A program made the position numbers and the translations under genes. Source: an uncultured delta proteobacterium (GTDB taxonomy: Bacteria; Desulfobacterota; Binatia; HRBIN30; BPIQ01). From it: a stretch of 64,000 nt of DNA. This document shows positions 6,747-56,039 of the stretch, in pieces (positions within the stretch are counted from its first letter, which is position 1; every line of letters starts with the position of its first letter). A model generated the notes under the pieces. It was given only the letters and a program-made list of their open reading frames with translations. It searched no databases and was not told the DNA's origin. The DNA lies in the NCBI GenBank assembly GCA_963761335.1, contig CAVXGR010000005.1, positions 229,684 to 293,683 of the forward strand. The letters are read 5' to 3'.

Positions 6747-8267
6747 ATGAGCGGCCCCCGGCTGGCCGATCTGCTCGCCGACGTCGAGGTTCTCGAGCGG
6801 CGCGGCTCCGTCGACATTCACATCGGCCACATTCGCTCCGATTCGCGGCTGGTCGAGCCGGGCGACCTCTTCGTCTGTCTGCCCGGCTACCGCACCGAGG
6901 GCGGCGAGAAGCGCGCCGATCGCCACCTGTTCGTCCCCGAAGCGCTGCGGCGCTGCGCCGCCGCCCTGGTGGTGGAGCGAGAGCCCGACACGAAGCTGCC
7001 GGCGCATCTGCCGGTGGTGCGGGTGCGCGACTGCTGGGCGGCGATCGCGGCGCTCTCGTGCGGGTTCTACGGCCAGCCCTCGCGACAGCTGCGGATGGTC
7101 GGTGTCACCGGCACCAGCGGCAAGACCTCGACCACCTACTTCATCGATTCGGTTCTGTCCGCAGCGGGCCTGCCCGCGGCGCGCCTGGGCACGATCGAGT
7201 ACAAGCTCGGCAGTGTGCGTCTGCCGGCGTCGCAGACGACACCCGAAGCTCCCGAGATGCAGCAGCTGCTGCGCCGCGCGCTCGACGAGGGCGCCGCCGC
7301 AGTGGTGATGGAGGTTTCGTCGCATGCGCTCGAGCTGCGGCGCGTGCAGGGCATCGCCTACGACGTCGCGGTATTCACCAATCTCAGCCAGGACCACCTG
7401 AACTTCCACCCCGACATGCACAGCTATCTGCGCGCCAAGGGGCGCCTCTTCGAGGAGCTCGGCAGCGGCGGCAAGGACGCCGTGGCGGTGGTGAACCGCG
7501 ACGATCCGGCGAGCGAGTACATCGAGAAGGTCAATCGCGGGCGGCTGCTGACTTACGGAATCAGCCCTCGGGCGGACGTGCGGGCGGAGGACGTCTCCAT
7601 CGGCCAGGGCGGCAGCCGTTTCCGGGCGCGCACCCCCGCCGGCGACGTCGACGTCTCGCTGGCGCATCTCGGCGAGTACAGCGTCCACAACGCGCTGGCG
7701 GCGGCGGCGACGGGAGTGGCACTGGGCCTGCCGCTGGACGAGATCGCCCGCGGCATCGACGCCGCTCCGCAGGTTCCCGGGCGTTTCGAGCTGATCGATT
7801 GCGGCCAGCGGTTTGCGGTGATCGTCGACTACGCCCACAAGCCCGACGCCTTGGAGCGCGTCATCCGCAGCGTGCGCGGCCTGCGGCCGCGGCGGGTGAT
7901 CACGGTTTTCGGCTGCGGCGGCGACCGCGACCGCGGCAAGCGTCCGATCATGGGCGCGATCGCGGCGCGCCTGAGCGACGTCGCCGTGGTGACCTCCGAC
8001 AACCCGCGCAGCGAGAGCCCGGAGGCGATCATCGAGGAGATCTGCGGCGGAATTCCGGCAGACTCCGCGGCCGAGGTGGTCGTCGAGCCGGACCGCGCTC
8101 GGGCCATCGACACCGCCATGCGCCTGGCGCGGGCGGAGGATGCGGTGATCATCGCTGGCAAGGGCCACGAGAACTACCAGCTGCTCGGCGACCGCCGCAT
8201 CCACTTCGACGACCGCGAGATGGCGCGCCAGGCGCTGGCGCGCCGCACCGACCCACCGAGCCACTGA
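6747..8267 (+). CDS. murE: UDP-N-acetylmuramoyl-L-alanyl-D-glutamate--2,6-diaminopimelate ligase
   Basis: Mur ligase P-loop GVTGTSGKTST and the DNPR motif, with full-length MurE architecture. Start chosen at MSGPRLADL; the alternative start is at 6726. Confidence 0.85.
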   Translation: MSGPRLADLLADVEVLERRGSVDIHIGHIRSDSRLVEPGDLFVCLPGYRTEGGEKRADRHLFVPEALRRCAAALVVEREPDTKLPAHLPVVRVRDCWAAIAALSCGFYGQPSRQLRMVGVTGTSGKTSTTYFIDSVLSAAGLPAARLGTIEYKLGSVRLPASQTTPEAPEMQQLLRRALDEGAAAVVMEVSSHALELRRVQGIAYDVAVFTNLSQDHLNFHPDMHSYLRAKGRLFEELGSGGKDAVAVVNRDDPASEYIEKVNRGRLLTYGISPRADVRAEDVSIGQGGSRFRARTPAGDVDVSLAHLGEYSVHNALAAAATGVALGLPLDEIARGIDAAPQVPGRFELIDCGQRFAVIVDYAHKPDALERVIRSVRGLRPRRVITVFGCGGDRDRGKRPIMGAIAARLSDVAVVTSDNPRSESPEAIIEEICGGIPADSAAEVVVEPDRARAIDTAMRLARAEDAVIIAGKGHENYQLLGDRRIHFDDREMARQALARRTDPPSH

Positions 8268-8330
8268 GCCACCGGGCCACTGTTTCCGCCCTCGCGAAAC
8301 TCCCCGGGGTGGGTTACGCTGAGGCGACGC

Positions 8331-9196: not shown

Positions 9197-9911
9197 CCTC
9201 TTGCGCGGGGGGGGACAGCGGATCCGCTCTGCGGACCTCGCCTTCCCTTCGCGGCTGTCATGTCCCGTCCCTCCCGCGGTGAAAATTGTACAGGGATGCG
9301 GCGACGGGGACCCCTGAGGACGCTTTTCTCTGGCAATACGATCGATATGCGGAGCAGAATGCCGATGGTTGGGCCGTTGCTATTGCGTGCAGAATGTATT
9401 GTCAGCGACTCTTCGTCGCCGTTGTGGTGTCGATGTTGGTTGGCGTCCTGCCGGTGCAGGCGCGACGCCTGAATGTATCGACGCAAATTGTCACTTCCGA
9501 TGCCGTCGGCGGCTATGACGCCGCGGCTCTTCCCTTCGATCCGATGACCTTCGAGAGCCCCCATTCGGGATGGGGCGAGCTCGGTAAGACCCGGTGGTGG
9601 GCCATCCTCGTCGCCCAGGTCGTGGTCCGCTTGGGGATCGTCGGCACGGAGTATTCCCCCCGGCTGGTCGAGCTCACCGAGGGACTCATGCACCACCCCG
9701 AGCTCGACTGGCAGATGCGCCTCGGTCGAGCGCAGAAGACCCGGCTGAACTTCCAGCTGAAGGCGGCCCATGGCGGCCCGAGGGCGGGGGTGTTGTTCAG
9801 ATGGTAGGGCGGCTCAGCATCTCAGTATCTCGGTGCCTCAGTGTCTCGGTACATTCGGTGGCCTCATTGAGCCACCGAGACACCGGGTTACCGAGCCACC
9901 GGGTCACCGGG

Positions 9912-10397
9912 TCACTGAGACACCGGTTGACCGGCTTGCAGATGCCGCAGCGTTTCGATCGCTTCGTCGATATGGACGTCGATGCCGAGCTCGCTCTGGA
10001 TGACGTGCTGGATGACGCCGTTCTTGTCGATGACGAAGGTGACGCGCTTGGTGGGCAGCCAGCCGCCGAGGCGCTGGACGCCGTAGGCGGTGGCGATGCG
10101 GCCGTCGCGATCGCTCACCAGCGGGTAGGGCAGCTGGTACTTCTCGGCGAAGGCCCCGTGTTTCTCCGCGGTATCGAGGCTCACGCCGATGATCTCGCCG
10201 TCGAGCGCGGCGATCTCGGCGCGGCGGTCGCGGAAGCTGCACGCCTCCTTGGTGCAGCCGGGGGTGAAGTCCTTCGGAAAGAAGTAGAGGATCACGTGGC
10301 GCCGGCCGCGGTAATCGCTCAGCTTGAGCTGGCGGCCGCCGGCGAGAGTTCCCGTGAAGTCGGGTGCGGCATCAGTCTTTGAGAGCATCTCTGGCAT
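9912..10397 (-). CDS. bcp: thiol peroxidase / peroxiredoxin Bcp (AhpC/TSA family)
   Basis: FFPKDFTPGCTKEAC peroxidatic-Cys motif. 161 aa. Confidence 0.85.
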   Translation of the reverse strand: MPEMLSKTDAAPDFTGTLAGGRQLKLSDYRGRRHVILYFFPKDFTPGCTKEACSFRDRRAEIAALDGEIIGVSLDTAEKHGAFAEKYQLPYPLVSDRDGRIATAYGVQRLGGWLPTKRVTFVIDKNGVIQHVIQSELGIDVHIDEAIETLRHLQAGQPVSQ

Positions 10398-12335: not shown

Positions 12336-12830
12336 AGTGGCTCGGTGGCTCGGTTATCGGGTTGTCGGGTTATCGAGTTTTGGTGATGGTAGCCGGTGGG
12401 TTTCAACCCGCGGCTGTGGCGTTTGGGCGCCTGCGCCCCTGACGGGGCGCGTGCAGAAGCCTGCCAATTTCCCCGGGTTTCACCCGGGGCTACACGCCTG
12501 CGCCCCCTTCGGGGGCGGCATCCGAATCGGCCTCGCCTGCGCCCCCTTCGGGGCGGCATCCGAATCGGCCTCGCCTGCGCCCCGGGGGCGGCATCCGAAG
12601 CGGCCGATGGGCGTCCAACCTCGTCGCCGGGGGTTGAACAGTCTGTCTCAAGACCTCGGCAAAACGATTCCGCAAGCCCGCGAACCAAGTAGAAGCGGCG
12701 TCTCGCCGCTTCGGAAAGCGCCGGGACGGCGCTTCTACCTCGGTTTGAGACAGCTTCTGAGACCCCCGGCTACCATCAACAGACCCGCCAACCCGCCAAC
12801 CCGATAACCGAGCCACCGAGCCACCGGCTT
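12336..12830. mobile_element. composite non-autonomous repeat element bounded by 28-bp perfect inverted repeats
   Basis: GTGGCTCGGTGGCTCGGTTATCGGGTT at 12336-12365 is the exact reverse complement of 12797-12826. The interior holds family-B palindromes (CCCCGGGTTTCACCCGGGG, GCGCCCCCTTCGGGGGCG x3) and one full family-A MITE (12643-12752). Confidence 0.6.
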
Positions 12831-14262
12831 ACTTTCCGAACCGCTGCAGCGACATCGGATCGAAGAGATTTTCGCGCAGCGGCACGCGGCGCTGGAAGGG
12901 CGCCTGCGCGTCGGGGCGCATGCCGCCGAGGGTAGCGCGGTCCTCCTTGAAGTTCTCGGCGCAGGCCCAGACCTGGGTGCTGGCGGGCAGCCATTCCTGA
13001 TCCGGCGGTGAGCCAGCGGGATGATTGATCCTCGCCATCGTCTGGTAGGTGTTGATCAGCTCGCCGTTCCAGCTGAACTTCCGGTTCCACGAGCCGTCCC
13101 AGGTCTCGGCGTCGATCCACAGCTCGATGCGGCCGAAGAGGTAGTACTTGTCCTTGGGAGTGGCCTCGATGATCCACATCGGCCGCTTCGCCAGGCCGGC
13201 GTCGATCGGTGCCCAGGGCAGACCGGTCCAGCCCTCCTGGCGGTAGCCGACGGTCGGCGGATTGCGGTCGGTGAGGATGATCCAGCCGCCGCCGGGAATC
13301 GGGTCGATCTTCACCGGGCCGTTCACCGACTCCGGATCGACGACGCGGAGCCCGTCCTTGTGGCCGATCACCTTCCAGGTGAAGTCCTCCGGCTTGCCGT
13401 CGAAGAAGAAGCCGTCGTCGCCGCTGAGGTCGGAGCCGAGATAGCCGTCGGAGCGGTTCGCCGGGCTCACGGCGCGAACGCGGCGGATGGCGGGCACGTA
13501 GGCCCAGACTGAGTCGCGCTTGTCGGGGTCGCGGTAGCGCCAGGTGAGCGAGGCCGTGCCCTCGAGGTCGGCGGGCTTGAGGGCGGCGCCGAGGAAGCGG
13601 CTCTGCAGGTTGAGCGGGTTCGGCTGGCGATACTTGGGGGTCTGGCCGTCGAAGAACTGAAACCAGCCGTCGGCGACGATTTCGCGGTCGACACCGGTGT
13701 GGTTGAGCATGGTGACCAGGGTGCGGTTGTAGGAGTCGCCGCCGTACCAGTACGCCAGGAACTGGTTCCAGGCGATCTTCACCCCGGCCTTGGGGTCGTG
13801 CTCGTCGATCTTCGGGAAGGGAATGCCGTAGTAGAAGTCCGGCTGCTTTCCGGTGGCGCGATCGATGATGGTGCCGCGGTCGTCGACGTCCAGGCGCGTG
13901 GCGTTCTGCTCGGTAGCGTCGAGGAACGACTTCTCCCAGGTACCGGTTCCCAAGGGGTAGTCGATGATCGGGTTGCGGTACTCTCCCTTGGCGTAGTGCG
14001 CCAAGATCTCGGGTGGCAGCAGATCCTTGGCGAGCTGCGCGTTCTCCTTGCCGAGGACGTCGCCCACCTTCAGCCCGGGTGCTACCTCCGCCCCCGCGGC
14101 CGCCGCCTGCGGCGCGGCTTGCGGCTTGGCGGCGGTCGACTGCGGCGTGGGTTTCGCCGCATCGGCGGCGAAGGCGGCGGGCAGCGGCAGCAGCAGCGCC
14201 AGAGCGATTGCGAGACAGCCGGCGTGGTCGCCGGCGTTGCGGATCAAGTATCGGATGCGCAT
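12829..14262 (-). CDS. DUF1329-family periplasmic/outer-membrane-associated protein (lipoprotein-sorting-like)
   Basis: 477 aa with a signal peptide. Size and composition fit the DUF1329 family, which is often linked to uptake of hydrophobic substrates. The assignment is from memory. Confidence 0.55.
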   Translation of the reverse strand: MRIRYLIRNAGDHAGCLAIALALLLPLPAAFAADAAKPTPQSTAAKPQAAPQAAAAGAEVAPGLKVGDVLGKENAQLAKDLLPPEILAHYAKGEYRNPIIDYPLGTGTWEKSFLDATEQNATRLDVDDRGTIIDRATGKQPDFYYGIPFPKIDEHDPKAGVKIAWNQFLAYWYGGDSYNRTLVTMLNHTGVDREIVADGWFQFFDGQTPKYRQPNPLNLQSRFLGAALKPADLEGTASLTWRYRDPDKRDSVWAYVPAIRRVRAVSPANRSDGYLGSDLSGDDGFFFDGKPEDFTWKVIGHKDGLRVVDPESVNGPVKIDPIPGGGWIILTDRNPPTVGYRQEGWTGLPWAPIDAGLAKRPMWIIEATPKDKYYLFGRIELWIDAETWDGSWNRKFSWNGELINTYQTMARINHPAGSPPDQEWLPASTQVWACAENFKEDRATLGGMRPDAQAPFQRRVPLRENLFDPMSLQRFGK

Positions 14263-14454
14263 CGATCCCCCTTTGGATGTGAGACCCTCGGATTCAACTG
14301 GACCCGGCCGCAGATTTCAACTGCGGCGCCACGGGACAGGCTACTTCTGCCCTTCGAGATCAGATGAGCGCGGCGGCAACAGCCGCAAAAGTTGCCTGTC
14401 CCCCACACCTTTCCTGCATTGTCCCCCGATCGCCTCCGTCTAGCATCGACCGTG

Positions 14455-14483
14455 TTGACAAACAAACGTTTGTTCCGTTAAAC
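14455..14483 (+). promoter_or_regulatory. promoter with a TTGACA -35 box immediately followed by the perfect palindrome AACAAACGTTTGTT (putative TetR operator)
   Basis: Palindrome at 14461-14474. TTGACA at 14455-14460. Possible -10 box TTAAAC 17 bp downstream. ATG of the DUF35 gene at 14492. The identical palindrome occurs at 52103-52116. Confidence 0.55.
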
Positions 14484-14491
14484 AACCCCGC

Positions 14492-14968
14492 ATGTCGACG
14501 CGCCCGCATCCGGTGAGCGACTCGGTGGAGCCGATGCACCAGGACATCGTCATGGAGTTTCCGTACACGCGCTCCACCGGCGAGACCGTCGGGCGCTTTC
14601 TCGCCGGTCTGAAGGAGCAGAAGAAGATCTGGGGGCGGCGTGTCGCCGGACAGGGCGTGGTCGTGCCGCCGATCGGCTACTCCGAGATCGACGCCTCTCC
14701 TGCCGGCGAATGGGTCGAGGTGAAGGACAGCGGCGAGGTCACCGCCGTCGCCGTGGTGGAGCAGCCGATCGAGCACCTGCATCCGTTCGCGCAGCGCTTT
14801 GCCTTCGTGCTCGTCCGCCTGGATGGCGCCGACACGGCGATGGCGCACGTGGTGAAGGACGATCTCGACAAGCTGCGGGTGGGAGCGCGCGTGCAGGCGG
14901 TGTGGGCGGCGGACGGGCAGCGCGGCGGCACCATTCGCGACATCGAGTGCTTCCGCGTCGTCGGCTGA
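14492..14968 (+). CDS. DUF35 OB-fold protein (thiolase/aldolase-associated)
   Basis: Size and OB-fold pattern match DUF35 proteins that partner SCP-x / Ltp2-type thiolase-like enzymes. First gene of the operon. Confidence 0.6.
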   Translation: MSTRPHPVSDSVEPMHQDIVMEFPYTRSTGETVGRFLAGLKEQKKIWGRRVAGQGVVVPPIGYSEIDASPAGEWVEVKDSGEVTAVAVVEQPIEHLHPFAQRFAFVLVRLDGADTAMAHVVKDDLDKLRVGARVQAVWAADGQRGGTIRDIECFRVVG

Positions 14969-15015: not shown

Positions 15016-15516
15016 ATGAACGAGCCGCCCCGGGAGCCGATCACCTACATCAAGACGACGGTGCGGCTGCCGTACCACTACGTCGCCGGCGACTACAAGG
15101 CGCGATATCTGCGCGCCCTGAAGGACAAGGTGATCCTCGGCTCGAAGTGCTCGAAGACCGGCAAGGTCTTCGTGCCGCCGCTGGTGAACTCCCCCGAGAG
15201 CTTCGCGCCGGCGGACGAGTTCGTCGAGGTGCCGGACCGCGGTCTGATCACCACCTTCTGCGTGGTCAACATCCCGGTGATCGGCCGCAACCTCGAGCTG
15301 CCCTACGTCGTCGCCTCGGTCGCCCTCGACGGCGCGGCGCTCTCCATCTTCGCCCTGATCCAGGAGGCGAAGCCGGACGAGGTGCGCATGGGCATGCGCG
15401 TCGAAGCGGTGTGGAAGCCCGATGGCGAGCGCCAGGGCAGCCACGAGGACATCCTCTACTTCCGCCCCACCGGCGAGCCCGACGCACCCCTCGAATCCTT
15501 CATCCACCGCCTGTGA
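15016..15516 (+). CDS. DUF35 OB-fold protein with N-terminal rubredoxin-like zinc ribbon
   Basis: Zn-ribbon-like CSKTGKVFVPP segment followed by an OB-fold. A stop 5 nt upstream separates it from the preceding gene. Confidence 0.65.
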   Translation: MNEPPREPITYIKTTVRLPYHYVAGDYKARYLRALKDKVILGSKCSKTGKVFVPPLVNSPESFAPADEFVEVPDRGLITTFCVVNIPVIGRNLELPYVVASVALDGAALSIFALIQEAKPDEVRMGMRVEAVWKPDGERQGSHEDILYFRPTGEPDAPLESFIHRL

Positions 15517-15521
15517 GATCC

Positions 15522-16640
15522 ATGTCGCTGCGCAACGTCGCCGTCGTCGGCTTCGCCCAGGAACCCATCGTCGCCCGTGACCAGCACCGCACGGCGCAGG
15601 AGATGCTCTACCCGCAGGTGCGGCGGGCGCTCGCCGACTGCGGCGTGGCCCGCGACGACATCGACTACCAGGTGGCGGGCTCCGCCGACTACATCGACGG
15701 GCGGCCGTTCGGCTTCGTCGCCTCGCTCGACTACATGGGCTCCTGGCCGCCGCGGCAGGACCTCCATCTGGAGATGGACGCCGCCTTCGCCGCCTATTAC
15801 GCCTGGCTGCGCCTGCAGACCGGCGAATGCGACACCGCCATGGTGGTGGGCTACGGCAAGACCTCGGAGGGCGAGCCCGACGTGGTGCTGAACCTCCAGC
15901 TCGAGCCCTTCTACCAGGGCGCCATCGGCCTCGACCCGACCTCGACCGCAGCTCTGCAGGCGAGCGCCTACATGGCGCGCAGTGGCGCTACGGATCGCAC
16001 CTTCGCGGAGGTGGCGGCGCGCCGCCGCGCCGCCGGGGCCCGCAACCCCGACGCGCAGGTGCGCGAGCCCGCTTCCGCCGACGACCTGCAGCGCACTCCC
16101 TTTGCGGTGGCGCCGCTGCGCCGTGGATACATCCCTCCCGTCGGCGAGAGTGCCGTCTGTCTCATCCTCGCCGCCGAGGGCAAGGCGGAGCGCATGTGCA
16201 GCAAGCCCGCCTGGATTCACGGAGTCGACCAGCGCGCCGAGCTGCAGACCCTGGGGGCGCGCGACCTGTCGCGCAGCGCCGGCGCCCGGATGGCGACGGA
16301 GAAGGCGCTGGCGATGGCCGGCCTCGAGAGTGCCCGCCAGGTCGATGTGCTCGAGCTGATGGCGACCAACCCCGCCGAGGAGCTGATCCTGCGCGAGGCC
16401 ATGGGCGTTGCGGCGGAGGGAGGCGTGCCGGCGGTGAACCCCTCGGGCGGACCGCTCACCGGGAACCCGCTGATGATGACCGGTTTGATTCGCCTGGGCG
16501 AGGTCTTCCGCCAGCTGAGCGGCGCGGCCGCGGCGCACGCCGTGAGCGGCGCCGAGCGCGGCATCGCCCACGCGGTTGAGGGGCAGTGCCTGCAGCAGAA
16601 CGTCGTCTGGGTTCTCGGGCGAGAGCGGAGGTGGAAATGA
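15522..16640 (+). CDS. thiolase-superfamily protein (SCP-x/Ltp2-like, non-canonical, probable aldolase/lyase)
   Basis: Thiolase fold with an NPSGG motif. At the nucleophile position the sequence reads ..EMDAAFAA.. with no Cys, and the GHP motif is replaced by GNPLMMTG. Confidence 0.75.
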   Translation: MSLRNVAVVGFAQEPIVARDQHRTAQEMLYPQVRRALADCGVARDDIDYQVAGSADYIDGRPFGFVASLDYMGSWPPRQDLHLEMDAAFAAYYAWLRLQTGECDTAMVVGYGKTSEGEPDVVLNLQLEPFYQGAIGLDPTSTAALQASAYMARSGATDRTFAEVAARRRAAGARNPDAQVREPASADDLQRTPFAVAPLRRGYIPPVGESAVCLILAAEGKAERMCSKPAWIHGVDQRAELQTLGARDLSRSAGARMATEKALAMAGLESARQVDVLELMATNPAEELILREAMGVAAEGGVPAVNPSGGPLTGNPLMMTGLIRLGEVFRQLSGAAAAHAVSGAERGIAHAVEGQCLQQNVVWVLGRERRWK

Positions 16641-17788
16641 AGCGGCCGGTCGCCGTCGTCGGCGTCGGGCAGACGCATCACAGCTCGCGCCGGGTGGACG
16701 TCAACACCGCCGAGCTGGTGCGTGAAGCGATCGACCGCGCTCTCCTCGACGCCGGTCTCGAGCATCGCGATATCGACGCCATCATCATCGGCAAGGCTCC
16801 GGACATGCTCGAGGGCATCATGCAGCCCGAGCAGCTCCTCATCGGCGCCGTCGGCGGCCATCTCAAGCCCGTCCTGCGCGTGCACACCGCCGGCTCGGTC
16901 GGCGCCTCGACGGCCCTCGCCGGCGTCACCCACGTCACCTCGGGGCTGTTCGACCGCGTGCTGGTGGTCGCCTTCGAGAAGCAGTCGGAGGGCAACGTCA
17001 TGTGGGCGCTGTCGCCGAACATGCCGTTCACGGCGCCGCTGGTGGCCGGGGCGGGCGGCTTCTTCACGCCCTACATCCGCGCCTACATCCGACTGACGGG
17101 GGCGCCGCCGCACATCGGCCCGATGATCGCCGCCAATGCGCGCGCCAACGCCGGCCGCAACCAGTACGCGCACCTGCGCGAGCCGGTGACGGTCGAGGAC
17201 GTCATGCAGTCGCCGATGCTGTGGGACCCGATCCGCTACCTGGAGACCTGCCCGTCGTCGGACGGCGCCGTCGCCCTCGTGATCTCCAGCGAGGAGCAGG
17301 CGCGCAAGGGGCCGCGCAAGCCGGCCTGGGTGAAGTCGGGCGCCTCCTACGCCGAGGCCATGTGGGTGCCGGGCCGCGATCAGGTGAACCCCACGGCCGG
17401 ACGGGTGTGCTCCAAGGCGGTCTATGACGCCGCCGGCATCACCGACCCCTGGAACCAGATCGACGTCGCCGAGATCTACGTGCCGTTCTCGTGGTTCGAG
17501 GCGATGTGGCTCGAGAACCTCGGCTTCTGCGGCCACGGCGAGGGCTGGAAGATCGTCGACCGCGGCGAGCAGAAGTTCGGTGCGCACCTGCCGATCAATC
17601 CCTCCGGCGGCGTGCTGTGCACCAACCCCATCGGCGCCTCCGGCATGCTGCGCCTCGGCGAGGCGGCGCTGCAGGTGATGGGGCGCGCCGGCGAGCATCA
17701 GGTCGAGGGGGCGAAGGTCGCCCTCGGCCACGCCTATGGCGGCGGTGCGCAGTACTTCGCCATGTGGATCGTCGGCAGCGAGCAGTAG
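16637..17788 (+). CDS. thiolase-superfamily protein (SCP-x/Ltp2-like, non-canonical)
   Basis: ATGA start/stop overlap with the previous gene. NPSGG motif. The nucleophile Cys is absent (HTAGSVGAS) and the GHP motif reads TNPIGASG. Confidence 0.75.
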   Translation: MKRPVAVVGVGQTHHSSRRVDVNTAELVREAIDRALLDAGLEHRDIDAIIIGKAPDMLEGIMQPEQLLIGAVGGHLKPVLRVHTAGSVGASTALAGVTHVTSGLFDRVLVVAFEKQSEGNVMWALSPNMPFTAPLVAGAGGFFTPYIRAYIRLTGAPPHIGPMIAANARANAGRNQYAHLREPVTVEDVMQSPMLWDPIRYLETCPSSDGAVALVISSEEQARKGPRKPAWVKSGASYAEAMWVPGRDQVNPTAGRVCSKAVYDAAGITDPWNQIDVAEIYVPFSWFEAMWLENLGFCGHGEGWKIVDRGEQKFGAHLPINPSGGVLCTNPIGASGMLRLGEAALQVMGRAGEHQVEGAKVALGHAYGGGAQYFAMWIVGSEQ

Positions 17789-17871: not shown

Positions 17872-18684
17872 ATGTCTGAACCGGCCGTCCTCTATTCGAA
17901 GCAGGATCACGTCGCCACCGTCACCCTCAACCGCCCGCAGGTGCGCAATGCCCTCAATGCGGAGATGCTCTGCCGTCTGGCCGACGCCTGGCAGAACATC
18001 ATCGACGACGTCGAGGTGCGCGCCGCCATTCTCACCGGGGCGGGAGAGGACGCCTTCTGCGCCGGCGCCGATCTCGATCGCCTGGTGAGAATGATGCAGG
18101 GGCTGCGGCCACCGGAGGACGAGTTCGACCACCGCATCAAGAACGACGTCACCATCATCTACAAGGGTCTCCTGCGCAACATCGAGGTGCACAAGCCGAT
18201 GGTCGCCGCGGTGAAGGGCTTCTGCGTCGCCGGGGGCATGGAGATCCTGCAGTGCACCGACATCCGCGTCGCCGCCGACGATGCGCAGTTCGGCCTCGCC
18301 GAGGTGAAGTGGAGCCTCTTTCCGATGGGCGGCTCGACGGTGCGGCTGCCGCGACAGATCTCTTACTGTCAGGCGATGGAGATCCTGCTCACCGGCGAGC
18401 GCATCCCGGCGCAGGAGGCGTGGCGCATCGGCCTGATCAACAAGGTCGTGCCGGCGGGAAAGGTGCTGGAGGAGGCGCAGCGCTACGCGTCGCTGCTCGC
18501 CGAGAACGGACCGCTGGCGGTGCAGGCGGTAAAGCGCTCGGTGCTCGCCGGGCTGGGCGTGCCGACGGCGGCGGCGCTCGACAAGGAGTTCGAGATCGGC
18601 GTGCCGGTGTCGATGTCGGAAGACTCGCGGGAAGGGACGAAGGCCTTCAAGGAAAAGCGCAAGCCGGTCTTCAAAGGGAAGTAG
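17872..18684 (+). CDS. enoyl-CoA hydratase/isomerase (crotonase) family protein
   Basis: Crotonase-fold motifs AGADL and GFCVAGGMEIL. RBS AAGGAG lies 8 nt upstream of the start. Confidence 0.85.
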   Translation: MSEPAVLYSKQDHVATVTLNRPQVRNALNAEMLCRLADAWQNIIDDVEVRAAILTGAGEDAFCAGADLDRLVRMMQGLRPPEDEFDHRIKNDVTIIYKGLLRNIEVHKPMVAAVKGFCVAGGMEILQCTDIRVAADDAQFGLAEVKWSLFPMGGSTVRLPRQISYCQAMEILLTGERIPAQEAWRIGLINKVVPAGKVLEEAQRYASLLAENGPLAVQAVKRSVLAGLGVPTAAALDKEFEIGVPVSMSEDSREGTKAFKEKRKPVFKGK

Positions 18685-18714: not shown

Positions 18715-18880
18715 CTGTTTTCCGTCGAGTTCTCCGTTCTCATTCTCGGTTCTCGTCCCGTCGTTTTCCATTGTTCTGCGAGCCGCGGCGAAACCGGTCA
18801 GCTGCGGGTTTCTCGGGGCTGTCAGAGCGAATGGAAAACGACGAGACGAGAACCGGGAATGAGAACGGGAATGGGGGAGA
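18715..18880. repeat. long imperfect inverted repeat (arms of about 45 bp) with an internal small hairpin, AT-enriched
   Basis: CCGTTCTCATTCTCGGTTCTCGTCCCGTCGTTTTCCATTG pairs with CAATGGAAAACGACGAGACGAGAACCGGGAATGAGAACGG. Lies between the crotonase and SGNH-hydrolase genes. Confidence 0.5.
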
Positions 18881-25491: not shown

Positions 25492-26109
25492 CTATCGACG
25501 CTTGCGCCGAGATGGCGAGTGCGGGCGGGCGACGGCATCGATCTCCTGCCACAAGGAGTCGAGGTCGAGCACGAGCCCCGGACATCCGGGCACACGGGCG
25601 CGCCCTTCGCCCGCGGAGAGAGCGAGCACATAGCTTCGCGAAGCGGCGAGCTCGAAGATCTCCAGGCTGCGGAGCTGGGGATCGACGATCCAGTAGTAGC
25701 GGATGCGCGCCGACGCATAGTCGCGGAGCTTGTCGAGGCGGTCCCTGCGGGTGTCGCGCGGCCTCGGCGAGGTGACCTCGACGACCAGGTGCGGGGTCAC
25801 GCGAATGAGTGCATCGTCGAGATCGGGAAGGTGCCCTCGCAGGTAGACTGAAAGGTCCGGCTTGCGGCCCCGCCGCGGACCGACGGCGATCTTCGTCTCC
25901 GAGCCCGCCACCTGAGCGCCGCGGCGGCGCGCCCACCGGCGCAGCTCCGCGATCAGCCAGGCGACGACGATCTCGTGCAAGAAGCTCGGCATCTCCTCCT
26001 CCTTGAGGACGCCATCGACGAGCTCTCCCTCGATATCCTCGTCGAGCCGTGCCCACTCCGCGAGCGTGAGGGGCCTCTCCTGTGCGACATCCGCCGCGCT
26101 GCGCGACAT
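25492..26109 (-). CDS. Uma2-family (DUF820) putative endonuclease
   Basis: Matches the Uma2 / restriction-endonuclease-like fold pattern (..LVVEVTSP..YWIVDP..). Confidence 0.65.
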   Translation of the reverse strand: MSRSAADVAQERPLTLAEWARLDEDIEGELVDGVLKEEEMPSFLHEIVVAWLIAELRRWARRRGAQVAGSETKIAVGPRRGRKPDLSVYLRGHLPDLDDALIRVTPHLVVEVTSPRPRDTRRDRLDKLRDYASARIRYYWIVDPQLRSLEIFELAASRSYVLALSAGEGRARVPGCPGLVLDLDSLWQEIDAVARPHSPSRRKRR

Positions 26110-26262
26110 GCGGCGAACACTACCACGGTGAGCTCTCGGGATGAAGGACCGGGCACCGCGATCTCCATGGGCAAGCCCAGCCGCCACGTCTCGGGACGCA
26201 GCCGCACCCAGGAGCTACCTTGGCCATGCCGGGTTGTGCGGCCCGCCGCCGCACCGCCGATG

Positions 26263-26981: not shown

Positions 26982-27941
26982 TCAAGCGGCGCTACGGGCT
27001 CCGTCGAGACAGCGATGCACCTCGACGGTGACGTGCGCCAGATCGCGGTGGCTCGCCAGGAGCTGCTTGTAGTGCGCCGGCTCACGCGGGTGCTGCGTGA
27101 CCACCGAGATGATTGCCGCCAGGTGCTGCGGGCCGACGCGCCACAGGTGCAGATCGGCCATCCGGTTGTCTGCATCCGCCTCGATTGCCTTCCTGATCGA
27201 CTCGTGGCGCTCCTCACCGGCCTCGGCATCGAGCAGCACGCGGCTGGTGTCGCGCAAGAGCCCCCAGGACCAACGAGCAATCACCACCGAGCCGATCAGA
27301 CCGGTCATCGAGTCCATCCATGTCCAGCCGAAGTACTTGCCCGCCGTCAGGGCGCCGATGGCCAGCACCGAGGTCAGCGCGTCCGCCAGCACGTGGAGGT
27401 AGGCACCGCGCAGGTTGTGATCGTGGTGGTGGTGATCTTCGCCGACAGTGGAGAGCGCGTGATCCTCGCGCAGCAGAACGGCACAGACGATGTTGACGAG
27501 AAGCCCGACCCAGGCGACCGCGATCGCCTCGTTGAAGCGGATCGGGGACGGGGTGGCGAGCCGCTCGACGCTCTCGCCGCAGACCAGGATGGCGACCACC
27601 GCCAGGCCGACGGCGCTGGCGAAGCCGCCGAGCGCCGCTACCTTTCCGGTGCCGAAGCTGTAGCGGGGATCGTCCGCGTGGCGCCTGGCGTAGGCATAGG
27701 CGAAGGCGGCGACGCCCAGGGCGGCGGCGTGCGTCGCCATGTGCCAGCCGTCCGCGAGGAGTGCCATCGAGCCAAACGCCAGGCCGGCGACGATCTCGAC
27801 CACCATCATGGTTGCGGTCAGGCCGATGACCCATCGGGTGCGCTGCTCGCCCCGCGTCTTGATGCCGGTTCCGAACGAATGGCGGTGCCGCCAGGGCTCC
27901 GTGGATTCGAGGTGCATGCTTTCCTTCCTTACTTTGCTCAT
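26982..27941 (-). CDS. cation diffusion facilitator (CDF) family metal transporter
   Basis: Six-TM CDF architecture, His-rich loop HHHHDH and a C-terminal cytoplasmic domain. Confidence 0.8.
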   Translation of the reverse strand: MSKVRKESMHLESTEPWRHRHSFGTGIKTRGEQRTRWVIGLTATMMVVEIVAGLAFGSMALLADGWHMATHAAALGVAAFAYAYARRHADDPRYSFGTGKVAALGGFASAVGLAVVAILVCGESVERLATPSPIRFNEAIAVAWVGLLVNIVCAVLLREDHALSTVGEDHHHHDHNLRGAYLHVLADALTSVLAIGALTAGKYFGWTWMDSMTGLIGSVVIARWSWGLLRDTSRVLLDAEAGEERHESIRKAIEADADNRMADLHLWRVGPQHLAAIISVVTQHPREPAHYKQLLASHRDLAHVTVEVHRCLDGARSAA

Positions 27942-27987
27942 ATCGCCCCGAGCCGCAGCCCTCAAGGTCGACACGGGGCACTTGCCG

Positions 27988-30900: not shown

Positions 30901-31110
30901 GGAGATTGGATAGGTGATCTGGTCCTCGACGATGTCGGGGCTCTGTCCGGGCCACTCGGTGAAGACGATCACCTGCACGTCCGACAGGTCCGGTATGGCG
31001 TCGAGCGGCGATTGGCGCATCGACCACGCCCCCCATGCCGCCAGGGCGGCGACGAAGAGCAGCGTGAGAAGAGGGTGCCGCGCGCAGGCGGCGATGACCC
31101 GGCCGATCAT
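27988..31110 (-). CDS. heavy-metal efflux RND pump, CusA/CzcA family
   Basis: 1040 aa. N-terminus MIGRVIAACARHPLLT with conserved HME-RND blocks throughout. The 279-aa upstream extension of the raw ORF is Arg-rich junk, so the start was taken at the internal Met. Confidence 0.9.
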   Translation of the reverse strand: MIGRVIAACARHPLLTLLFVAALAAWGAWSMRQSPLDAIPDLSDVQVIVFTEWPGQSPDIVEDQITYPISASLLAAPRIKYVRGQSMFGMSFVYAIFEDGTDIYWARSRVLEYLDEVSNALPQGVTPVLGPDATGVGWVFEYALVDESGTLDLQELRSLQDWNLRYAIESVPGVAEVASVGGFGKEYQILLDPNKLVALGIPLREVVQAVRESNQEVGGQVLELSEHEFMVRGRGYVKKKQDLELVPLKVGTTGAPVYIRDVGEVKLGPAPRRGLADLDGRGEVVGGIVVMRYGENALRVIGAVKERLAQLQKTLPAGVKVVTTYDRSGLIEASIDTLRHTLIEEMLVVSLVIFVFLLHARSALVPIVTLPLAVLLSFVPMFYQGLTINIMSLGGIAVAIGAMVDASIIIIENIHKKLEVWEEVGRPGDRLQVLIGAMQEVGPSIFFSLLVITVSFLPVFTLQAVEGRLFRPLAFTKTYSMGFAALLAITLTPALAAIFVRGRIRGEEANPLNRILIALYVPVVRFVVRFRRSVIALAVIAVALTVPAALQIQSEFMPPLNEGAILYMPTAPPGMSMSEASVLLQSMDRKLKQFPEVMSVFGKMGRASSPTDPAPIGMVETVVMLKPREQWRQGMTWDDLISEMDRALRYPGMPNIWWMPIQTRTEMLSTGIRSPLGIKIFGDDLATIEDTAVRIEQAVAAIPGTRSAFADRSTGGFYLDVKVDRAAAARYGLRVADVNDVVQTAIGGMQVSETVEGRERYPVSVAYARDFRDDPTALERVLVATPGGAQVPLRQVADIEFATGPPMIRSEGGRLVGYVFVDTGDRAIAEYVAQAKEVVARQVRLPAGLRLEWAGQFQYFERAKERLKVVVPVTLFLICLLLYFNTGSATEVAIVLAAVPFSLIGAVWLLYLLGYNTSVAVWVGLIALAGLDAETGVVMLLYLKLAYERAREEGRMRSPADLREAIVEGAARRIRPKLMTVLTTFIGLLPVMWSTGTGADVMRRIAAPMVGGLATSFLLELTVYPAIFALWKGRGTAQAS

Positions 31111-35599: not shown

Positions 35600-36010
35600 C
35601 ACAAGTCAGCCGCTACTTCGAAAATCTGCTGGGTGAAGGTCTGGCGGAGCCCCGGCGCTTGGGGTGGAGATTATCGCCCCGGAGGGGCGCGGGCATGTAG
35701 CCCCGGGTGCCAACCCGGGGACCGCGTCCCGATTGCCCGGATCTGCGCCCCGGAGGGGCGCAGGCGTAGGGGCCGCGTGAATCACGTCGATGAGCTTTCC
35801 ACGCACCCAGCGGTGATCATCGGCGTACAGGCGCGACATCGACGAAATTTTGCCCGCGCCCCTGGCGGGGCGCCTATGACGGACCGTGCACTTTTCCCCG
35901 GGTTTCACCCGGGGCTACACGCCACTGCCCCTCCGGGGCGAACTTCGCCGAGGCCGGAACCCCCAAATCTCTTCCCGGGTCAGAACCCCGGCCTCATTTT
36001 CATCGTCTGC
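35600..36010. repeat. MITE-like repeat family B (roughly 400 bp, full-length copy)
   Basis: Related copies at 58409-58625 (5' part, above 90% identity) and 56040-56710 (reverse orientation with an internal duplication of about 205 bp). Imperfect terminal inverted repeats of about 70 bp starting GAAAAT and ending CGCCCCGGAGGGGCG. Fragments also lie inside 12420-12640. Confidence 0.7.
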
Positions 36011-36105
36011 TGGCGAGCCGCAAGGCAAGGCTCATGACGCACTGCTTCGAAAGTGTCGTGGGTGGGCCATCCGAGTGGCGTGGGGTCGTGGTCGCAAGCG
36101 CGGAG

Positions 36106-40058: not shown

Positions 40059-40063
40059 CGCGC

Positions 40064-48970: not shown

Positions 48971-49891
48971 CTATTTCACTGCCAGAGGGTTGAGGGGTGA
49001 GCCGACGCCGCCGGTCACCTTGAGGGGCGGCGCGCTGAAGAGAAACTCGTAGACGCCGTCGGCGGCGCAGTCGGCGGCGAGATCGCCGAGGTCGAACATC
49101 TCGCCCAGCGTCAGACCCATGTCGCGGATGCACAGCAGGTGGAGCGGCAGCGGCGTGCTGGCGTCCTCGAAGGGAATCACCTCGACGGCGTTGGTGTCGC
49201 TCGCCACGGCCGCCACCTCGCGGGCGTGCAGCCACTCGGCGCAGGCGACCCCGAGACCGGGCATCTGGCGCATGTAGCCGACGCGGTCTCCATCCTTCTT
49301 GAAGACGTCGAGGTGGCCGGTGCGAATGAGCAGGACGTCGCCGGACTCGGCGCGGACGCCGGCGGCGCGCTCGGCGGTCTCGAGATCACCGGGACCGATG
49401 ACGCGGCCGGGCGGCAGTCGATCGACGCCGGCGGCGCGGGCGAGGTCGAGGAGCACGCCGCGGGAGACGATGCCGGCGCCCACCTTGTCGATGCCGTTGC
49501 GGGCCGCCCCGGCGGGCGTGATCGTCGAGGCGGGATAGCCGTTGTAGAGCTGTCCGCCGTAGTGGACGTGCGCCAGGCTGTCCCACTGGGTGGCGCACTG
49601 CAGCGGCATGACGACGACGTCGTCGGAGTAGCGGAAGCCCTCCGGGTCGGGACCGATCTGTCCGGCCACGGCGCTCATCAGGTGCAGTGGGTTGACGCGC
49701 CCGCCCTGGCCGATCTGGGGCCCCTCGGCGCCGAAGTTGAGACCGAGGCTGAAGACGTCGCCGCGCTTCACGCGGGCGGCGCCGCGCCGCACCACCTCCG
49801 GGGTGATGAAGTTGAGAGTGCCGCGCTCGTCGTCCGCGCCCCAGCGCCCCCAGTTCGAGACCCTCTTCGCGAGAGCGCGTACCTTCTCCAT
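48971..49891 (-). CDS. putative cyclase family protein (kynurenine-formamidase-like fold)
   Basis: 306 aa. Pattern ..HVHYGGQLYNGY.. and ..DLLIRTGH.. is typical of the putative-cyclase family. Last gene of the tetR-P450-fdx operon. Confidence 0.6.
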   Translation of the reverse strand: MEKVRALAKRVSNWGRWGADDERGTLNFITPEVVRRGAARVKRGDVFSLGLNFGAEGPQIGQGGRVNPLHLMSAVAGQIGPDPEGFRYSDDVVVMPLQCATQWDSLAHVHYGGQLYNGYPASTITPAGAARNGIDKVGAGIVSRGVLLDLARAAGVDRLPPGRVIGPGDLETAERAAGVRAESGDVLLIRTGHLDVFKKDGDRVGYMRQMPGLGVACAEWLHAREVAAVASDTNAVEVIPFEDASTPLPLHLLCIRDMGLTLGEMFDLGDLAADCAADGVYEFLFSAPPLKVTGGVGSPLNPLAVK

Positions 49892-50156: not shown

Positions 50157-51368
50157 TCAACCCGCCGCCGGCGTGAAGCGCACCGGCATCCGCTTGATTC
50201 CGGCGATGAAGTTGGAGCGCAGGCGCGCCACCGGCCCGGCCAGCTCGATGTCGGGGAGACGGCGCAGCAGCTCCGCGAACATGAGGCGGATCTCCAGGCG
50301 CGCCAGATTGGAGCCGAGGCAGAAGTGCTCGCCGATGCCGAAGGCGAGGTGGTTGTTGGGCGTGCGGCCGACGTCGAAGTGGTCGGGTGCCGCGAAGACG
50401 TCCTCGTCGCGGTTGGCGGAGATGTAGTAGATCACCACCTTGTCGCCCTCGCGGATCCGGTGGCCGCGCAGCTCGGTGTCGCGGGTCGCGGTGCGGCGGA
50501 AGTGGGTCACCGGGGAAACCCAGCGCAGCATTTCCTCGACGGTGGTGTCGATGAGCGACGGATCGGCGAGCAGGCGGGCGCGCTGCTCGGGGTGCTCGAT
50601 GAGCGCCAGCATACCGCCGGAGATGAGGTTGCGGGTGGTTTCGTTGCCGGCCACGGCGAGCAGCAGGAAGAAGAGGTCGAACTCGAGCTCGCTGAGCTGC
50701 TGGCCGTCCACCTCGCCGTTCATCAGCACGCTCACCAGGTCGTCGCCGGGGTGCTGGCGCCGCTCGATGGCGAGCTGGTTGGCGTAGACGTACATCTCGG
50801 TGGCGGCGATCTTGCCGTCCTCCAACGAGGTCTGGAACTCCGGGTCGTCGAAGCCGATCAGCCGATTGCTCCACTCGAACAGCTTGTGCCGATCCTCCAG
50901 CGGGATTCCCATCATCTCGGCGATGACCTGCAGCGGCAGCTCGCAGGCGATGTCGGCGACGAAGTCGCACTCGCCGCGCGCCGCCACCTTGTCGACGATG
51001 AGGCGCGCCTGCTCGCGAATGCGGGGCTCGAGGCGGCTGATCATGCGCGGCGTGAAGCCGCGGCTCACCAGCGAGCGCAGCTTGGTGTGCTTCGGCGGGT
51101 CCTGATTGAGCATCATCAGCTGCATCTGTTGCAGGTCCTCCTCCGCCGGCTCGAAGAGGAAGGTCGCCCGGCGCTCGGAGGAGAAGGTGCGGGGATCGCG
51201 AGACACGGTGATGACGTCGGCGTGCTTGGTGACCGCCCAGAAGCCGGGTCCCTGCGGGTCGGGATGCCAGAACACCGGCGCCTCGGCGCGCAGGCGCGCG
51301 AAGGCGGCGTGCGGCACGCCCTTCTCCCAGAGGTCCTGGCTGTAGAGATCGATGTCGGACAGGCTCAT
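50157..51368 (-). CDS. cytochrome P450 monooxygenase
   Basis: Haem-thiolate loop FGIGEHFCLG. EEMLRW (ExxR). I-helix AGNETT. Confidence 0.9.
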   Translation of the reverse strand: MSLSDIDLYSQDLWEKGVPHAAFARLRAEAPVFWHPDPQGPGFWAVTKHADVITVSRDPRTFSSERRATFLFEPAEEDLQQMQLMMLNQDPPKHTKLRSLVSRGFTPRMISRLEPRIREQARLIVDKVAARGECDFVADIACELPLQVIAEMMGIPLEDRHKLFEWSNRLIGFDDPEFQTSLEDGKIAATEMYVYANQLAIERRQHPGDDLVSVLMNGEVDGQQLSELEFDLFFLLLAVAGNETTRNLISGGMLALIEHPEQRARLLADPSLIDTTVEEMLRWVSPVTHFRRTATRDTELRGHRIREGDKVVIYYISANRDEDVFAAPDHFDVGRTPNNHLAFGIGEHFCLGSNLARLEIRLMFAELLRRLPDIELAGPVARLRSNFIAGIKRMPVRFTPAAG

Positions 51369-51410: not shown

Positions 51411-52088
51411 TCAGCGCCTGCGCACGGCGCGCGGCCGCGCTCGGCCGGCGCCGAGAAGCTCCGCCACGGCGGTCTTGAGGAAGCGGCGTTGCCGTTGCAG
51501 CGCTGCGGGATCGAGGGGATCGCCCTGCATCACCGTCTGCAGGAGCTTGGCGTTGGCGAAGTAGCCGAAGATCAGCAGGTAGAGGCCGGCGGCGAGGTGC
51601 GGCAGCTCCTCCGCCGTCCACGGCCCGCCGCTGCTGGCCAGCACCTGCACGCCTTCGGCGTAGACGGGCCGCAGGAGCCGGGTGATGGTGCTGCGCAGGT
51701 AGCGGCTGTCGTCGAGCGCGGCGCGCTGGATCAGCCGCGGCAGCTGCGGATGCTCGACCAGGTAATCGAACATGCGGTCGAGGAAGTGATCGACGACGCC
51801 CGCCTCGACGGCGGCGCCGCTCCCCTTCTCGGCATCGACGCGGGCGCTCTCCGCCACCAGCTCGAGAACCGGATCGAGGCCGCGCGCTAGCGCCGCCTCG
51901 TAGAGCGCCCGCTTGTTGCGGAAATGGTTGTAGAGGCTGGCCTGGTTCTTCAGCCCCGCCTCGGCGGCGATGCCGCGCACCGAGACCCCGGCGAAGCCGC
52001 TCTCCGCGAAGCGCCGCTCCGCGGCGTCGAGGATCAGATCCCGCGTCGACCGCGCCTCGGCCTTGCGCGCCGCGCCGCTGCCAGCCAT
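51411..52088 (-). CDS. TetR/AcrR-family transcriptional regulator
   Basis: N-terminal HTH (GFAGVSVRGIAAEAGLKNQASLYNHFRNKRALY). First gene of the P450 operon. Confidence 0.85.
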   Translation of the reverse strand: MAGSGAARKAEARSTRDLILDAAERRFAESGFAGVSVRGIAAEAGLKNQASLYNHFRNKRALYEAALARGLDPVLELVAESARVDAEKGSGAAVEAGVVDHFLDRMFDYLVEHPQLPRLIQRAALDDSRYLRSTITRLLRPVYAEGVQVLASSGGPWTAEELPHLAAGLYLLIFGYFANAKLLQTVMQGDPLDPAALQRQRRFLKTAVAELLGAGRARPRAVRRR

Positions 52089-52096
52089 GCGCCCTG

Positions 52097-52122
52097 TTAC
52101 AAAACAAACGTTTGTTCGTCAA
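52097..52122 (-). promoter_or_regulatory. tetR promoter/operator: TTGACG -35 box immediately followed by the perfect palindrome AACAAACGTTTGTT
   Basis: Palindrome at 52103-52116, 15 nt upstream of the tetR ATG (52088). Same sequence and architecture as 14455-14474. Confidence 0.55.
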
Positions 52123-52125
52123 GCC

Positions 52126-52322
52126 GCCAAGGCGAACCGCAGAGGCGCCGAGGGTGCAGAGAAAGGACACCGCCACGATCCGTTACCGGCGTCCCTTCGC
52201 CTGGGGCGTTGCCCCAGGCTGTTGAATTGCGCCCATTCGGGGCTGGAGTGGTCCGAATCTCCCTCGGCGTCCTTGGCGAGCTTCTCCTCTGCGCCCTCGG
52301 CGCCTTGGCGGTTCGCCTTGGC
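52126..52322. repeat. 36-bp imperfect inverted repeat (33/36 matching) flanking a structured segment of about 125 bp in the tetR-dxs intergenic region
   Basis: GCCAAGGCGAACCGCAGAGGCGCCGAGGGTGCAGAG versus CTCTGCGCCCTCGGCGCCTTGGCGGTTCGCCTTGGC. Internal hairpin CCTGGGGcgttgCCCCAGG. Confidence 0.5.
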
Positions 52323-52411
52323 GGCTCTTTGCACCGGTTCTGCACGATCTCTCTGCTGGAATTCCTCGCCGCGGCTCTGCAGTCGTCAAACTCGTATGCT
52401 CTTCTGGGGGC

Positions 52412-55146: not shown

Positions 55147-55150
55147 AGCG

Positions 55151-56014: not shown

Positions 56015-56039
56015 AAGGGGACAGTGCGTCATGAGCCTG

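Follow-up and report, generated by a model that had tools for sequence, protein, structure and literature searches.

A TetR-family repressor that binds a palindrome inside a core promoter, regulates its own gene and has several targets is a textbook circuit, and in actinobacteria KstR, a repressor of this family, controls the cholesterol regulon (cyp125, echA19, ltp3/ltp4 and others). Here we describe a predicted circuit of this kind in a 64,000-nucleotide stretch (hereafter the window) of contig CAVXGR010000005.1, which comes from an uncultured delta proteobacterium placed in the Binatia. A perfect 14-bp palindrome, AACAAACGTTTGTT, occurs in it exactly twice, once (site 1) before genes for two DUF35 proteins, two thiolase-like proteins and an enoyl-CoA hydratase and once (site 2), 38 kb away, before a gene for a TetR-family protein that is followed by P450, ferredoxin and cyclase genes. 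We consider it very probable, on the sequence and comparative evidence given below, that both palindromes are operators of this TetR protein and that it co-represses the P450 operon and the distant DUF35/thiolase-like operon.

[quoted passage not shown] Its effector is given there as a CoA thioester (Sakamoto 2011, as cited in PMC6651687). A full-text search with the core 12-mer of the palindrome returned this one paper. The probe and the window 14-mer agree letter for letter, and as the 14-mer is thus the REPSA optimum of PaaR, TetR proteins recognise precisely this sequence. In Thermus, however, the targets are paa genes, whereas in the window they would be CYP125-like, Ltp-like, DUF35 and hydratase genes, and no paa genes were found in the window or the related loci (the PaaF model reaches 182 bits as compared to a cut-off of 371). 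Moreover, the natural Thermus sites are imperfect (AACGGCCGTTAGTT, AACAAACGACCGTT) while the lineages considered here use the perfect optimum. The exact agreement of the window 14-mer with the PaaR optimum suggests that DNA specificity is conserved across very distant TetR proteins with different effectors.

By its logic the system is closest to KstR, with which it shares a TetR protein and palindromic operators at dispersed promoters; its CYP125-like, Ltp3-, Ltp4- and EchA19-like targets may also correspond to the combination, under KstR, of a P450 C26-hydroxylase with genes for side-chain beta-oxidation. The operators differ, however, as AACAAACGTTTGTT has AAA at positions 4-6 and TTT at positions 9-11, ends in A/T rather than T/A and misfits the KstR motif, which we take to be TnnAACnnGTTnnA. 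None of the 60 listed PDB matches by sequence (out of 81) is a KstR structure, and the host lineages are different; KstR is an analogue and not an orthologue. The M. tuberculosis region echA19(Rv3516)-cyp142-Rv3520c-Rv3521-ltp4-ltp3, in which Rv3520c is an F420 luciferase-like monooxygenase (PMC6429209), parallels the gene set of the window. PsrA, the FadR proteins of Thermus and Bacillus and Fad35R/BkaR likewise have the TetR fold and repress genes of the beta-oxidation type, and PsrA (NF053516, helix-turn-helix (HTH) only; 2fbq), Rv2506 (Fad35R/BkaR) and B. subtilis FadR are the weak best matches of the window protein, yet identity is only 16-24%, the models score far below their cut-offs, and sequence and spacing of the operators are different. 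Taken together, the system resembles PaaR in its operator and KstR in its logic, but is a member of neither.

Predicted operator sites, promoters and the presumed repressor

The earlier note on this DNA, made from the letters alone, had stated that the 14-mer occurs only twice and at both sites directly follows a TTGAC(A/G) hexamer. Both statements hold: each copy is fused to a -35 hexamer of this form, and there is no third match on either strand of the window with up to 3 mismatches allowed (0.19 expected from shuffled sequences; 1 of 100 shuffles reached 2). By our own arithmetic an exact 14-mer with 10 A/T positions is expected about 1e-5 times per window at 68% G+C. A position weight matrix (PWM) built from sites in other genomes and applied to the window and to 20 shuffles gives 30.8 bits for both copies, 6.7 bits for the next best position of the window and 4.3-15.2 bits for the maxima of the shuffles. 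No weaker PWM site above shuffle level was found in the window, including the promoters of the luciferase-like, GDSL, dxs, second TetR (TetR2) and fatty-acid hydroxylase genes. The flanks of the two copies are unrelated and the common part comprises only 20 nt, so that the pair is not a repeated element. Rfam has no match at either site.

Site 1 reads TTGACA/AACAAACGTTTGTT/CCGT/TAAACA/ACCCCGC/ATG(14492) on the plus strand and sits in the 229 nt that separate the DUF1329 gene from the first DUF35 gene, and site 2 reads TTGACG/AACAAACGTTTGTT/TTG/TAACAG/GGCGC/ATG(52088) on the minus strand, with a separation from the TetR gene one nucleotide shorter than the 15 nt first noted. The promoters would thus be ordered as TTGAC(A/G), 14-bp operator, 3-4 nt and TAnAnn, and with the operator filling the promoter spacer a bound repressor dimer would exclude RNA polymerase. 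Site 1 would control the DUF35a-DUF35b-thiolase-like A-thiolase-like B-enoyl-CoA hydratase operon and site 2 the tetR-P450-ferredoxin-cyclase operon; as site 2 stands before tetR itself, the repressor would be autoregulated. The start codons lie 14-17 nt past the operator in the window and 14-19 nt past it in relatives, in which the TAnAnn hexamer also follows at 3-4 nt, and at such distances both mRNAs are probably leaderless or nearly so. Two other readings of the palindrome were rejected, namely that of an RNA hairpin or terminator (the 7-bp arms are A/T-rich, have no loop and lie upstream of the predicted starts) and that of an extracytoplasmic function (ECF) sigma promoter (AAC...CGT), for which the spacing is wrong.

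That the divergent DUF1329 gene probably belongs to the regulon, as had been proposed, agrees with its position opposite the DUF35 operon in six loci (the window, L083, L084, L105, L111 and L117). In all six a CTAGCA(T/C) block precedes TTGACA at a distance of exactly 15 nt, with an intervening sequence that varies, and on the minus strand this block reads TGCTAGAnn, an extended -10, whose implied -35 would lie inside the operator. The block is absent from L087, L104 and L124, and an upstream DUF1329 match is likewise absent there. A similar block in L123 is located upstream of a sequence that looks, by eye, like a tRNA, which argues for CTAGCA as a general promoter element. Site 1 would therefore serve two promoters, and one bound repressor would probably block the DUF35 and DUF1329 promoters alike.

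The presumed repressor has a TetR-type HTH (PF00440, residues 19-66, E = 1.8e-13), and its AlphaFold2 model (predicted local distance difference test score, pLDDT, 88.9) is all-helical, with 10 helices in the two-domain TetR fold, whose C-terminal domain serves ligand binding and dimerisation. All 50 matches listed by Foldseek against the PDB are TetR-family proteins (template modelling score up to 0.79), but with similar scores and 16-24% identity these neighbours carry no information on the effector. Sequence searches of the PDB and NCBIfam gave TetR matches confined to the HTH of assorted TetR proteins, all far below the cut-offs. There are 1163 homologues at E <= 1e-10. The names that homologues carry point to the Binatia. 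The HTH segment VSVREIAAEAGLKNQASLYHHFRNKRALYEAVL is nearly invariant among the orthologues, in keeping with the invariance of the operator.

Conservation of the predicted operator and alternative explanations

Related metagenome loci were gathered by similarity of the TetR protein alone (56-72% identity). In most of the closer TetR orthologues whose loci extend upstream (L007, L009-L013 and L015-L017) TTGACA fused to a AACAAACGTTTGTT-like palindrome stands directly before the start, perfect operators precede the DUF35 genes in L083 (position 5708) and L084 (position 5320), and a variant precedes the TetR gene in L084 (position 9970). Mapping of the window proteins onto these loci shows that the two units are contiguous and co-oriented in the relatives, in the order DUF35a-DUF35b-thiolase A-thiolase B-crotonase-TetR-P450. 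The gene order crotonase, TetR, P450 is found in L005-L011, L013, L083-L085, L094, L110, L116 and L122, while the longer contigs L083 and L084 add the divergent DUF1329 gene upstream and ferredoxin and cyclase genes downstream; in several relatives an acyl-CoA synthetase gene lies between crotonase and TetR (in L094, NF005863 at 643 bits, cut-off 543). The number of operators varies from one for the whole gene string, as in L083, to two, and the window has two. The earlier proposal of one TetR regulon spanning both units is thus strongly supported by loci in which they form a single operon or adjoin. In a further case, L082, which belongs to a Binatia metagenome-assembled genome (MAG), a 64%-identical TetR follows ChsH2-like, MaoC, Ltp-type (NF005892, 627 bits, cut-off 469) and steroid-thiolase-type genes, the last of which matches the 'steroid 3-ketoacyl-CoA thiolase' (FadA5) equivalog with 684 bits (cut-off 515), and an operator variant, AACAAACGTTCGTT, lies upstream.

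The -35 hexamer and the operator together form the 20-mer TTGACNAACAAACGTTTGTT, for which a scan of 185,579 representative genomes gave 40 exact matches, where by our own estimate about 4 would be expected by chance at equal base frequencies and far fewer in G+C-rich genomes. Fourteen stand directly before relatives of the window TetR (12 at 53-64% and 2 at 41-42% identity), most of them followed by a P450 gene, 8 before DUF35a operons, 1-2 before the P450 gene itself, 3 before more distant TetR genes, and one before a 502-aa gene with a wax-ester-synthase-type HHxxxDG motif (by eye), at a distance of 2.8 kb to a TetR-P450 pair. The labels of the hosts read Binatia, 'Deltaproteobacteria', Chloroflexi/Dehalococcoidia, Myxococcales and bacterium HR30. 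A perfect 20-mer in L118 (5713-5732; contig 1 of the Binatia MAG GcC5-6, to which L082 also belongs) is located 62 nt before the gene for a 261-aa protein resembling BcrAD/BadFG-type ATPases (by eye), which may be an extra member of the regulon in this MAG. In Castellaniella hirudinis (L089, 4062-4081) and C. defragrans (L099, 3930-3949) the identical 20-mer, TTGACAAACAAACGTTTGTT, with TTACAAAAT behind it, precedes by 84-90 nt the gene for a secreted protein of 671-676 aa that looks like a GDSL-type autotransporter esterase (by eye); since both species have kept the 20-mer, another TetR-type regulator probably uses it as its operator there.

But could the two palindromes have arisen without any bearing on the TetR protein next to one of them? 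Chance matches or a mobile or dispersed repeat can be dismissed. The window is indeed rich in other repeats and long palindromic elements, one of which abuts the TetR promoter, but the two copies have only 20 nt in common, their chance expectation is minute, and the orthologous positions are conserved in many genomes. The earlier note had named dispersal of the 14-mer over many unrelated loci as the outcome that would speak against its proposal; what we find are two copies in the window and a 20-mer that mostly precedes orthologues of the same genes. It also seems most improbable that the 20-mer is a strong core-promoter module of the lineage which is shared by highly expressed operons and binds no repressor. 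It is always fused to the -35 hexamer and keeps a fixed distance to a -10-like element, as such a module would; however, its core has perfect dyad symmetry, it is confined to one gene set rather than found at promoters in general (neither the CTAGCA block of L123 nor that of the DUF1329 promoters comes with its own palindrome), there are only two copies in 64 kb, and the 14-mer is identical to the biochemically defined site of a TetR protein, PaaR. We further judge it unlikely that the palindrome is a true operator of another regulator, TetR2 or a paralogue, and that the adjacent TetR has its targets elsewhere. The TetR2 gene is only 2.4 kb away, paralogues are numerous (L082 and L084 each have additional TetR genes), and in L086, L090, L106, L108 and L120 TetR genes that are more distant, with identities of about 40% or lower, stand behind the same 20-mer. 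Yet the site travels with the orthologues of the window TetR, directly before their starts, across Binatia, Chloroflexota-type and other MAGs, whereas the HTH of TetR2 differs and no TetR2 occurs in the related loci.

Several observations nevertheless weigh against the proposed co-repression by the window TetR or against details of it. About 12 of the 40 genomic matches precede genes with no relation to this set and belong to unrelated taxa (low-G+C Firmicutes, Castellaniella, Ellagibacter and others), and the sequence is therefore not exclusive to this system; these matches may be due to chance or be operators of other TetR proteins. As to the statement that the operator fills the -35/-10 spacer, the -35 hexamers and the TAnAnn element conserved in relatives uphold it, but a strict scan for E. 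coli-type sigma-70 promoters found none at site 1 or site 2, as the final T is missing from the -10-like hexamers, so that the geometry rests on the conserved element and start-codon distance rather than on the E. coli consensus. In some DUF35 operons the start is 35-95 nt past the operator and hence not all can be leaderless, and in the window translation could begin instead at an internal ATG (14534) that follows GGTGGAG. Finally, the count of sites in the source genome is that of the 64-kb window, and binding by the TetR protein, repression and the transcription starts are predictions from sequence and comparison.

The split cluster and the repeats of the window

The arrangement in the relatives suggests that the window holds an ancestral single cluster split by 38 kb, with each piece retaining a copy of the operator, and the shared operator would keep the two halves co-regulated after their separation by rearrangement. 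Just after the crotonase stop codon lies an inverted repeat (18734-18868) with 39-nt arms that are 95% complementary and a 57-nt centre, which may mark the breakpoint, since it is exactly there that the TetR gene follows crotonase in relatives. Repeats of about 280 nt, up to 94-96% identical and inverted, are found at 35613-36022, 56038-56704 and 58390-58625 and the Rfam Acido-Lenti-1 RNA motif recurs within them (58465-58510, minus strand, 40 bits). Between the copies at 35.6 kb and 56.3 kb lies the 20-kb segment with the TetR-P450 operon, so that one can conceive of an inversion between the two.

The 30 kb between the two units encode unrelated functions, including a cytochrome bc-type complex, two heavy-metal resistance-nodulation-division (RND) systems and an H+-pyrophosphatase. 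The RND systems (27988-34357 and 36852-43305) are paralogous efflux systems, each with an AcrB-type pump, an HlyD_D23/HMBD adaptor and an outer-membrane efflux protein (OEP); they are about 8.9 kb apart and have nucleotide blocks of 71-80% identity. Five tandem 51-nt units (33955-34260) occupy part of the 5' region of the outer-membrane efflux protein gene 32717-34357. Together with a cation-efflux gene (26982-27974) and a Uma2 endonuclease gene (25492-26187), which also lie between the regulon halves, these systems resemble a metal-resistance block.

Other repeats adjoin the regulated genes. In the gap between TetR and dxs a 205-nt palindromic element (52122-52326) with 40-nt arms, 93% complementary, abuts the TetR -35 hexamer; it contains an inner hairpin, GCCTGGGGC-gtt-GCCCCAGGC, has a predicted RNA folding energy of -141.7 kcal/mol (z = -9.4) and could be an insulator or terminator, a miniature inverted-repeat transposable element (MITE) or a dxs leader. 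About 22 copies of the octamer GGTTGTTA form a perfect tandem array (54217-54392) between the end of dxs and TetR2. The gene for TetR2 (54511-55146) runs into the start of a fatty-acid hydroxylase (PF04116) gene, and the two make up a small regulator-enzyme pair of their own (54511-56014) that is without the palindrome. On the other side, 8-nt units (ACCGAGCC- or ACCGGGTC-like) are arrayed as 42-nt inverted arms at 12337-12378 and 12783-12824 around the luciferase-like/DUF1329 intergenic region, and similar arrays occur at two other intergenic sites (8247-8289 and 9866-9940).

Enzymes of the two units and their candidate substrate

The gene identities given in the earlier note (DUF1329, DUF35, thiolase-like, crotonase, TetR, P450, ferredoxin and cyclase) are all confirmed by Pfam or open reading frame (ORF) evidence and are listed, with the promoter elements, in Table 1.

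Table 1. Coordinates of the predicted regulatory elements and of the genes of the two units in the window
Feature	Position	Strand	Remarks
Putative extended -10, TGCTAGACG	14437..14445	-	17-nt spacer would put the -35, TTGTTT (14460-14465), over the left half of the operator
-35 hexamer TTGACA, DUF35-operon promoter	14455..14460	+	fused to the operator; TTGAC(A/G) plus operator kept in nearly all related loci
Operator copy 1 (predicted)	14461..14474	.	perfect 14-bp palindrome, PWM 30.8 bits; identical site before the DUF35 operon in relatives
-10-like element, TTAAAC (17-nt spacer) or TAAACA (18-nt spacer)	14478..14484	+	putative; 7-8 nt before ATG 14492
-10-like hexamer TAACAG, 17-nt spacer	52094..52099	-	putative; 5 nt before ATG 52088
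Operator copy 2 (predicted)	52103..52116	.	14 nt from the TetR start codon; conserved before TetR orthologues
-35 hexamer TTGACG, TetR-P450 operon promoter	52117..52122	-	read from the sequence
DUF1329/LolA-like protein, signal-peptide-like N-terminus	12829..14262	-	PF07044, PF17131; divergent position conserved
DUF35a, OB_ChsH2_C-domain protein	14492..14968	+	PF01796; orthologues 63-77% identical in related loci
DUF35b, second OB_ChsH2_C-domain protein	15016..15516	+	PF01796
Thiolase-like A	15522..16640	+	Thiolase_C_1; best NCBIfam match 'lipid-transfer protein' NF005924/PRK07937, 338 bits, below cut-off 419
Thiolase-like B	16637..17788	+	NF006180/PRK08313, 597 bits, above cut-off 514; without nucleophilic cysteine
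Crotonase-family enoyl-CoA hydratase, EchA19-like	17872..18684	+	ECH_1
PF04199 'cyclase'-family protein, last gene of operon	48971..49891	-	after ferredoxin also in L084, L094, L110, L116
Ferredoxin, 64 aa	49908..50102	-	ORF; 60-68% identity in L084, L086, L094, L110, L116
Cytochrome P450, CYP125/CYP124-like	50157..51368	-	Pfam, PDB sequence comparison
TetR-family repressor	51411..52088	-	Pfam TetR_N, TetR_C_29; presumably operator-binding and autoregulated

The P450 is most similar to CYP125MRCA, the reconstructed CYP125 ancestor (8vxi; 64.5% identity, 581 bits, E = 1e-173), is 45.8% identical to CYP125A1 of M. tuberculosis (7r1i) and falls within the CYP125 family, for which at least 40% amino-acid identity is asked. 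CYP124, a methyl-branched lipid omega-hydroxylase, scores 358 bits as compared to 353 bits for extant CYP125, and the CYP153 alkane hydroxylases are clearly lower. CYP125MRCA hydroxylates cholesterol and phytosterols at their terminal methyl (PMC12100521). The 64-aa ferredoxin, whose orthologue in L084 carries Fer4_15 and Fer4_13, is the probable redox partner of the P450.

In the other unit the two free-standing PF01796 proteins are encoded directly upstream of the thiolase-like pair. Of the subfamilies matched by the latter we take PRK07937 to be Ltp4-like and PRK08313, presumably, to be Ltp3-like. In thiolase-like B a glycine replaces the nucleophilic cysteine, as 'vhtaGsvGa' aligns with 'vnnnCstGs', 'ieaaCasGg' and 'vqsaCsaGa' of true thiolases. 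Cysteine-free aldolases of the thiolase superfamily pair with DUF35 partners (PMC10398937), and the degradation of C24-branched sterol side chains is reported to require Ltp3 and Ltp4 (Wilbrink 2012, as cited in PMC10398937). The window set is thus like Ltp2-ChsH2 (DUF35) and Ltp3/Ltp4 in combining cysteine-free thiolase-superfamily proteins, DUF35 proteins of the oligonucleotide/oligosaccharide-binding (OB) fold and an enoyl-CoA hydratase, but differs in having two free-standing DUF35 and two thiolase-like proteins, and its activity is predicted. The four proteins presumably form a heteromer. Together the enzymes would oxidise a methyl-branched side chain at its end, activate it with CoA, hydrate it and shorten it by retro-aldol or thiolytic cleavage in a beta-oxidation-type route, and the inducer would probably be the substrate or a CoA-thioester intermediate. 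The DUF1329/LolA-like protein, a probable member of the regulon by its conserved position, possibly handles a hydrophobic substrate.

What, then, would the substrate be? The earlier guess of a steroid-, isoprenoid- or lipid-like compound fits both the identity of the P450 to the CYP125 ancestor and the Ltp3-, Ltp4- and EchA19-like matches, and a sterol- or isoprenoid-type branched side chain appears most likely from these similarities. Against this stand the lack of any steroid-ring degradation gene in the 64-kb window and the scores of the EchA19 and Ltp4-type models, which remain below their curated cut-offs (for the hydratase, 308 bits with NF051848 EchA19, cut-off 400, next to 313 bits with PRK07799, cut-off 316). 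The pathway may instead serve methyl-branched alkanes or fatty acids, acyclic isoprenoids, hopanoid side chains or an aromatic acyl-CoA rather than sterols, an alternative to which we give serious weight, if somewhat less than an even chance. It agrees with the near-equal scores of CYP124 and extant CYP125, with the luciferase-like monooxygenase gene that adjoins the site 1 unit, with an operator equal to that of the phenylacetyl-CoA sensor PaaR and with the missing ring-degradation genes. Moreover, the Binatota have been described as alkane degraders with P450 (Cyp153) and LadA-type genes, in a genomic account that does not mention sterols (PMC8262859). On the other hand, the best match of the P450 by far is the sterol-oxidising CYP125 ancestor, genes linked to the TetR relative in L082 pass the steroid thiolase cut-off within a ChsH2/MaoC/Ltp set, and the failure of the PaaF model together with the absence of paa genes argues against an aromatic acyl-CoA.

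It is conceivable, though rather doubtful, that the operator marks an undescribed but widespread regulon for sterol and phytosterol side chains in Binatia and Chloroflexota/Dehalococcoidia-type MAGs, with a PaaR-type TetR, leaderless back-to-back promoters and a gene set of CYP125-type P450, ferredoxin, FadD, EchA19-like hydratase, Ltp3/Ltp4-DUF35 aldolase and DUF1329 lipid carrier. If this is true, aerobic catabolism of sterol side chains extends beyond the Actinobacteria and Proteobacteria, and P450s that have been counted as alkane hydroxylases of the Binatota need to be reinterpreted.

Our analysis provides a precise, predicted operator/repressor pair for an uncultured phylum, and the motif can be used to map regulons in MAGs. 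With a copy of the operator left on each piece, the two parts of the split cluster would stay co-regulated. In Binatia and Chloroflexota-type genomes a CYP125-like P450 is tied to an Ltp3/Ltp4-DUF35-hydratase cassette, and this link points to catabolism of sterol- or isoprenoid-type side chains, a capacity that goes unmentioned in the description of the Binatota (PMC8262859).

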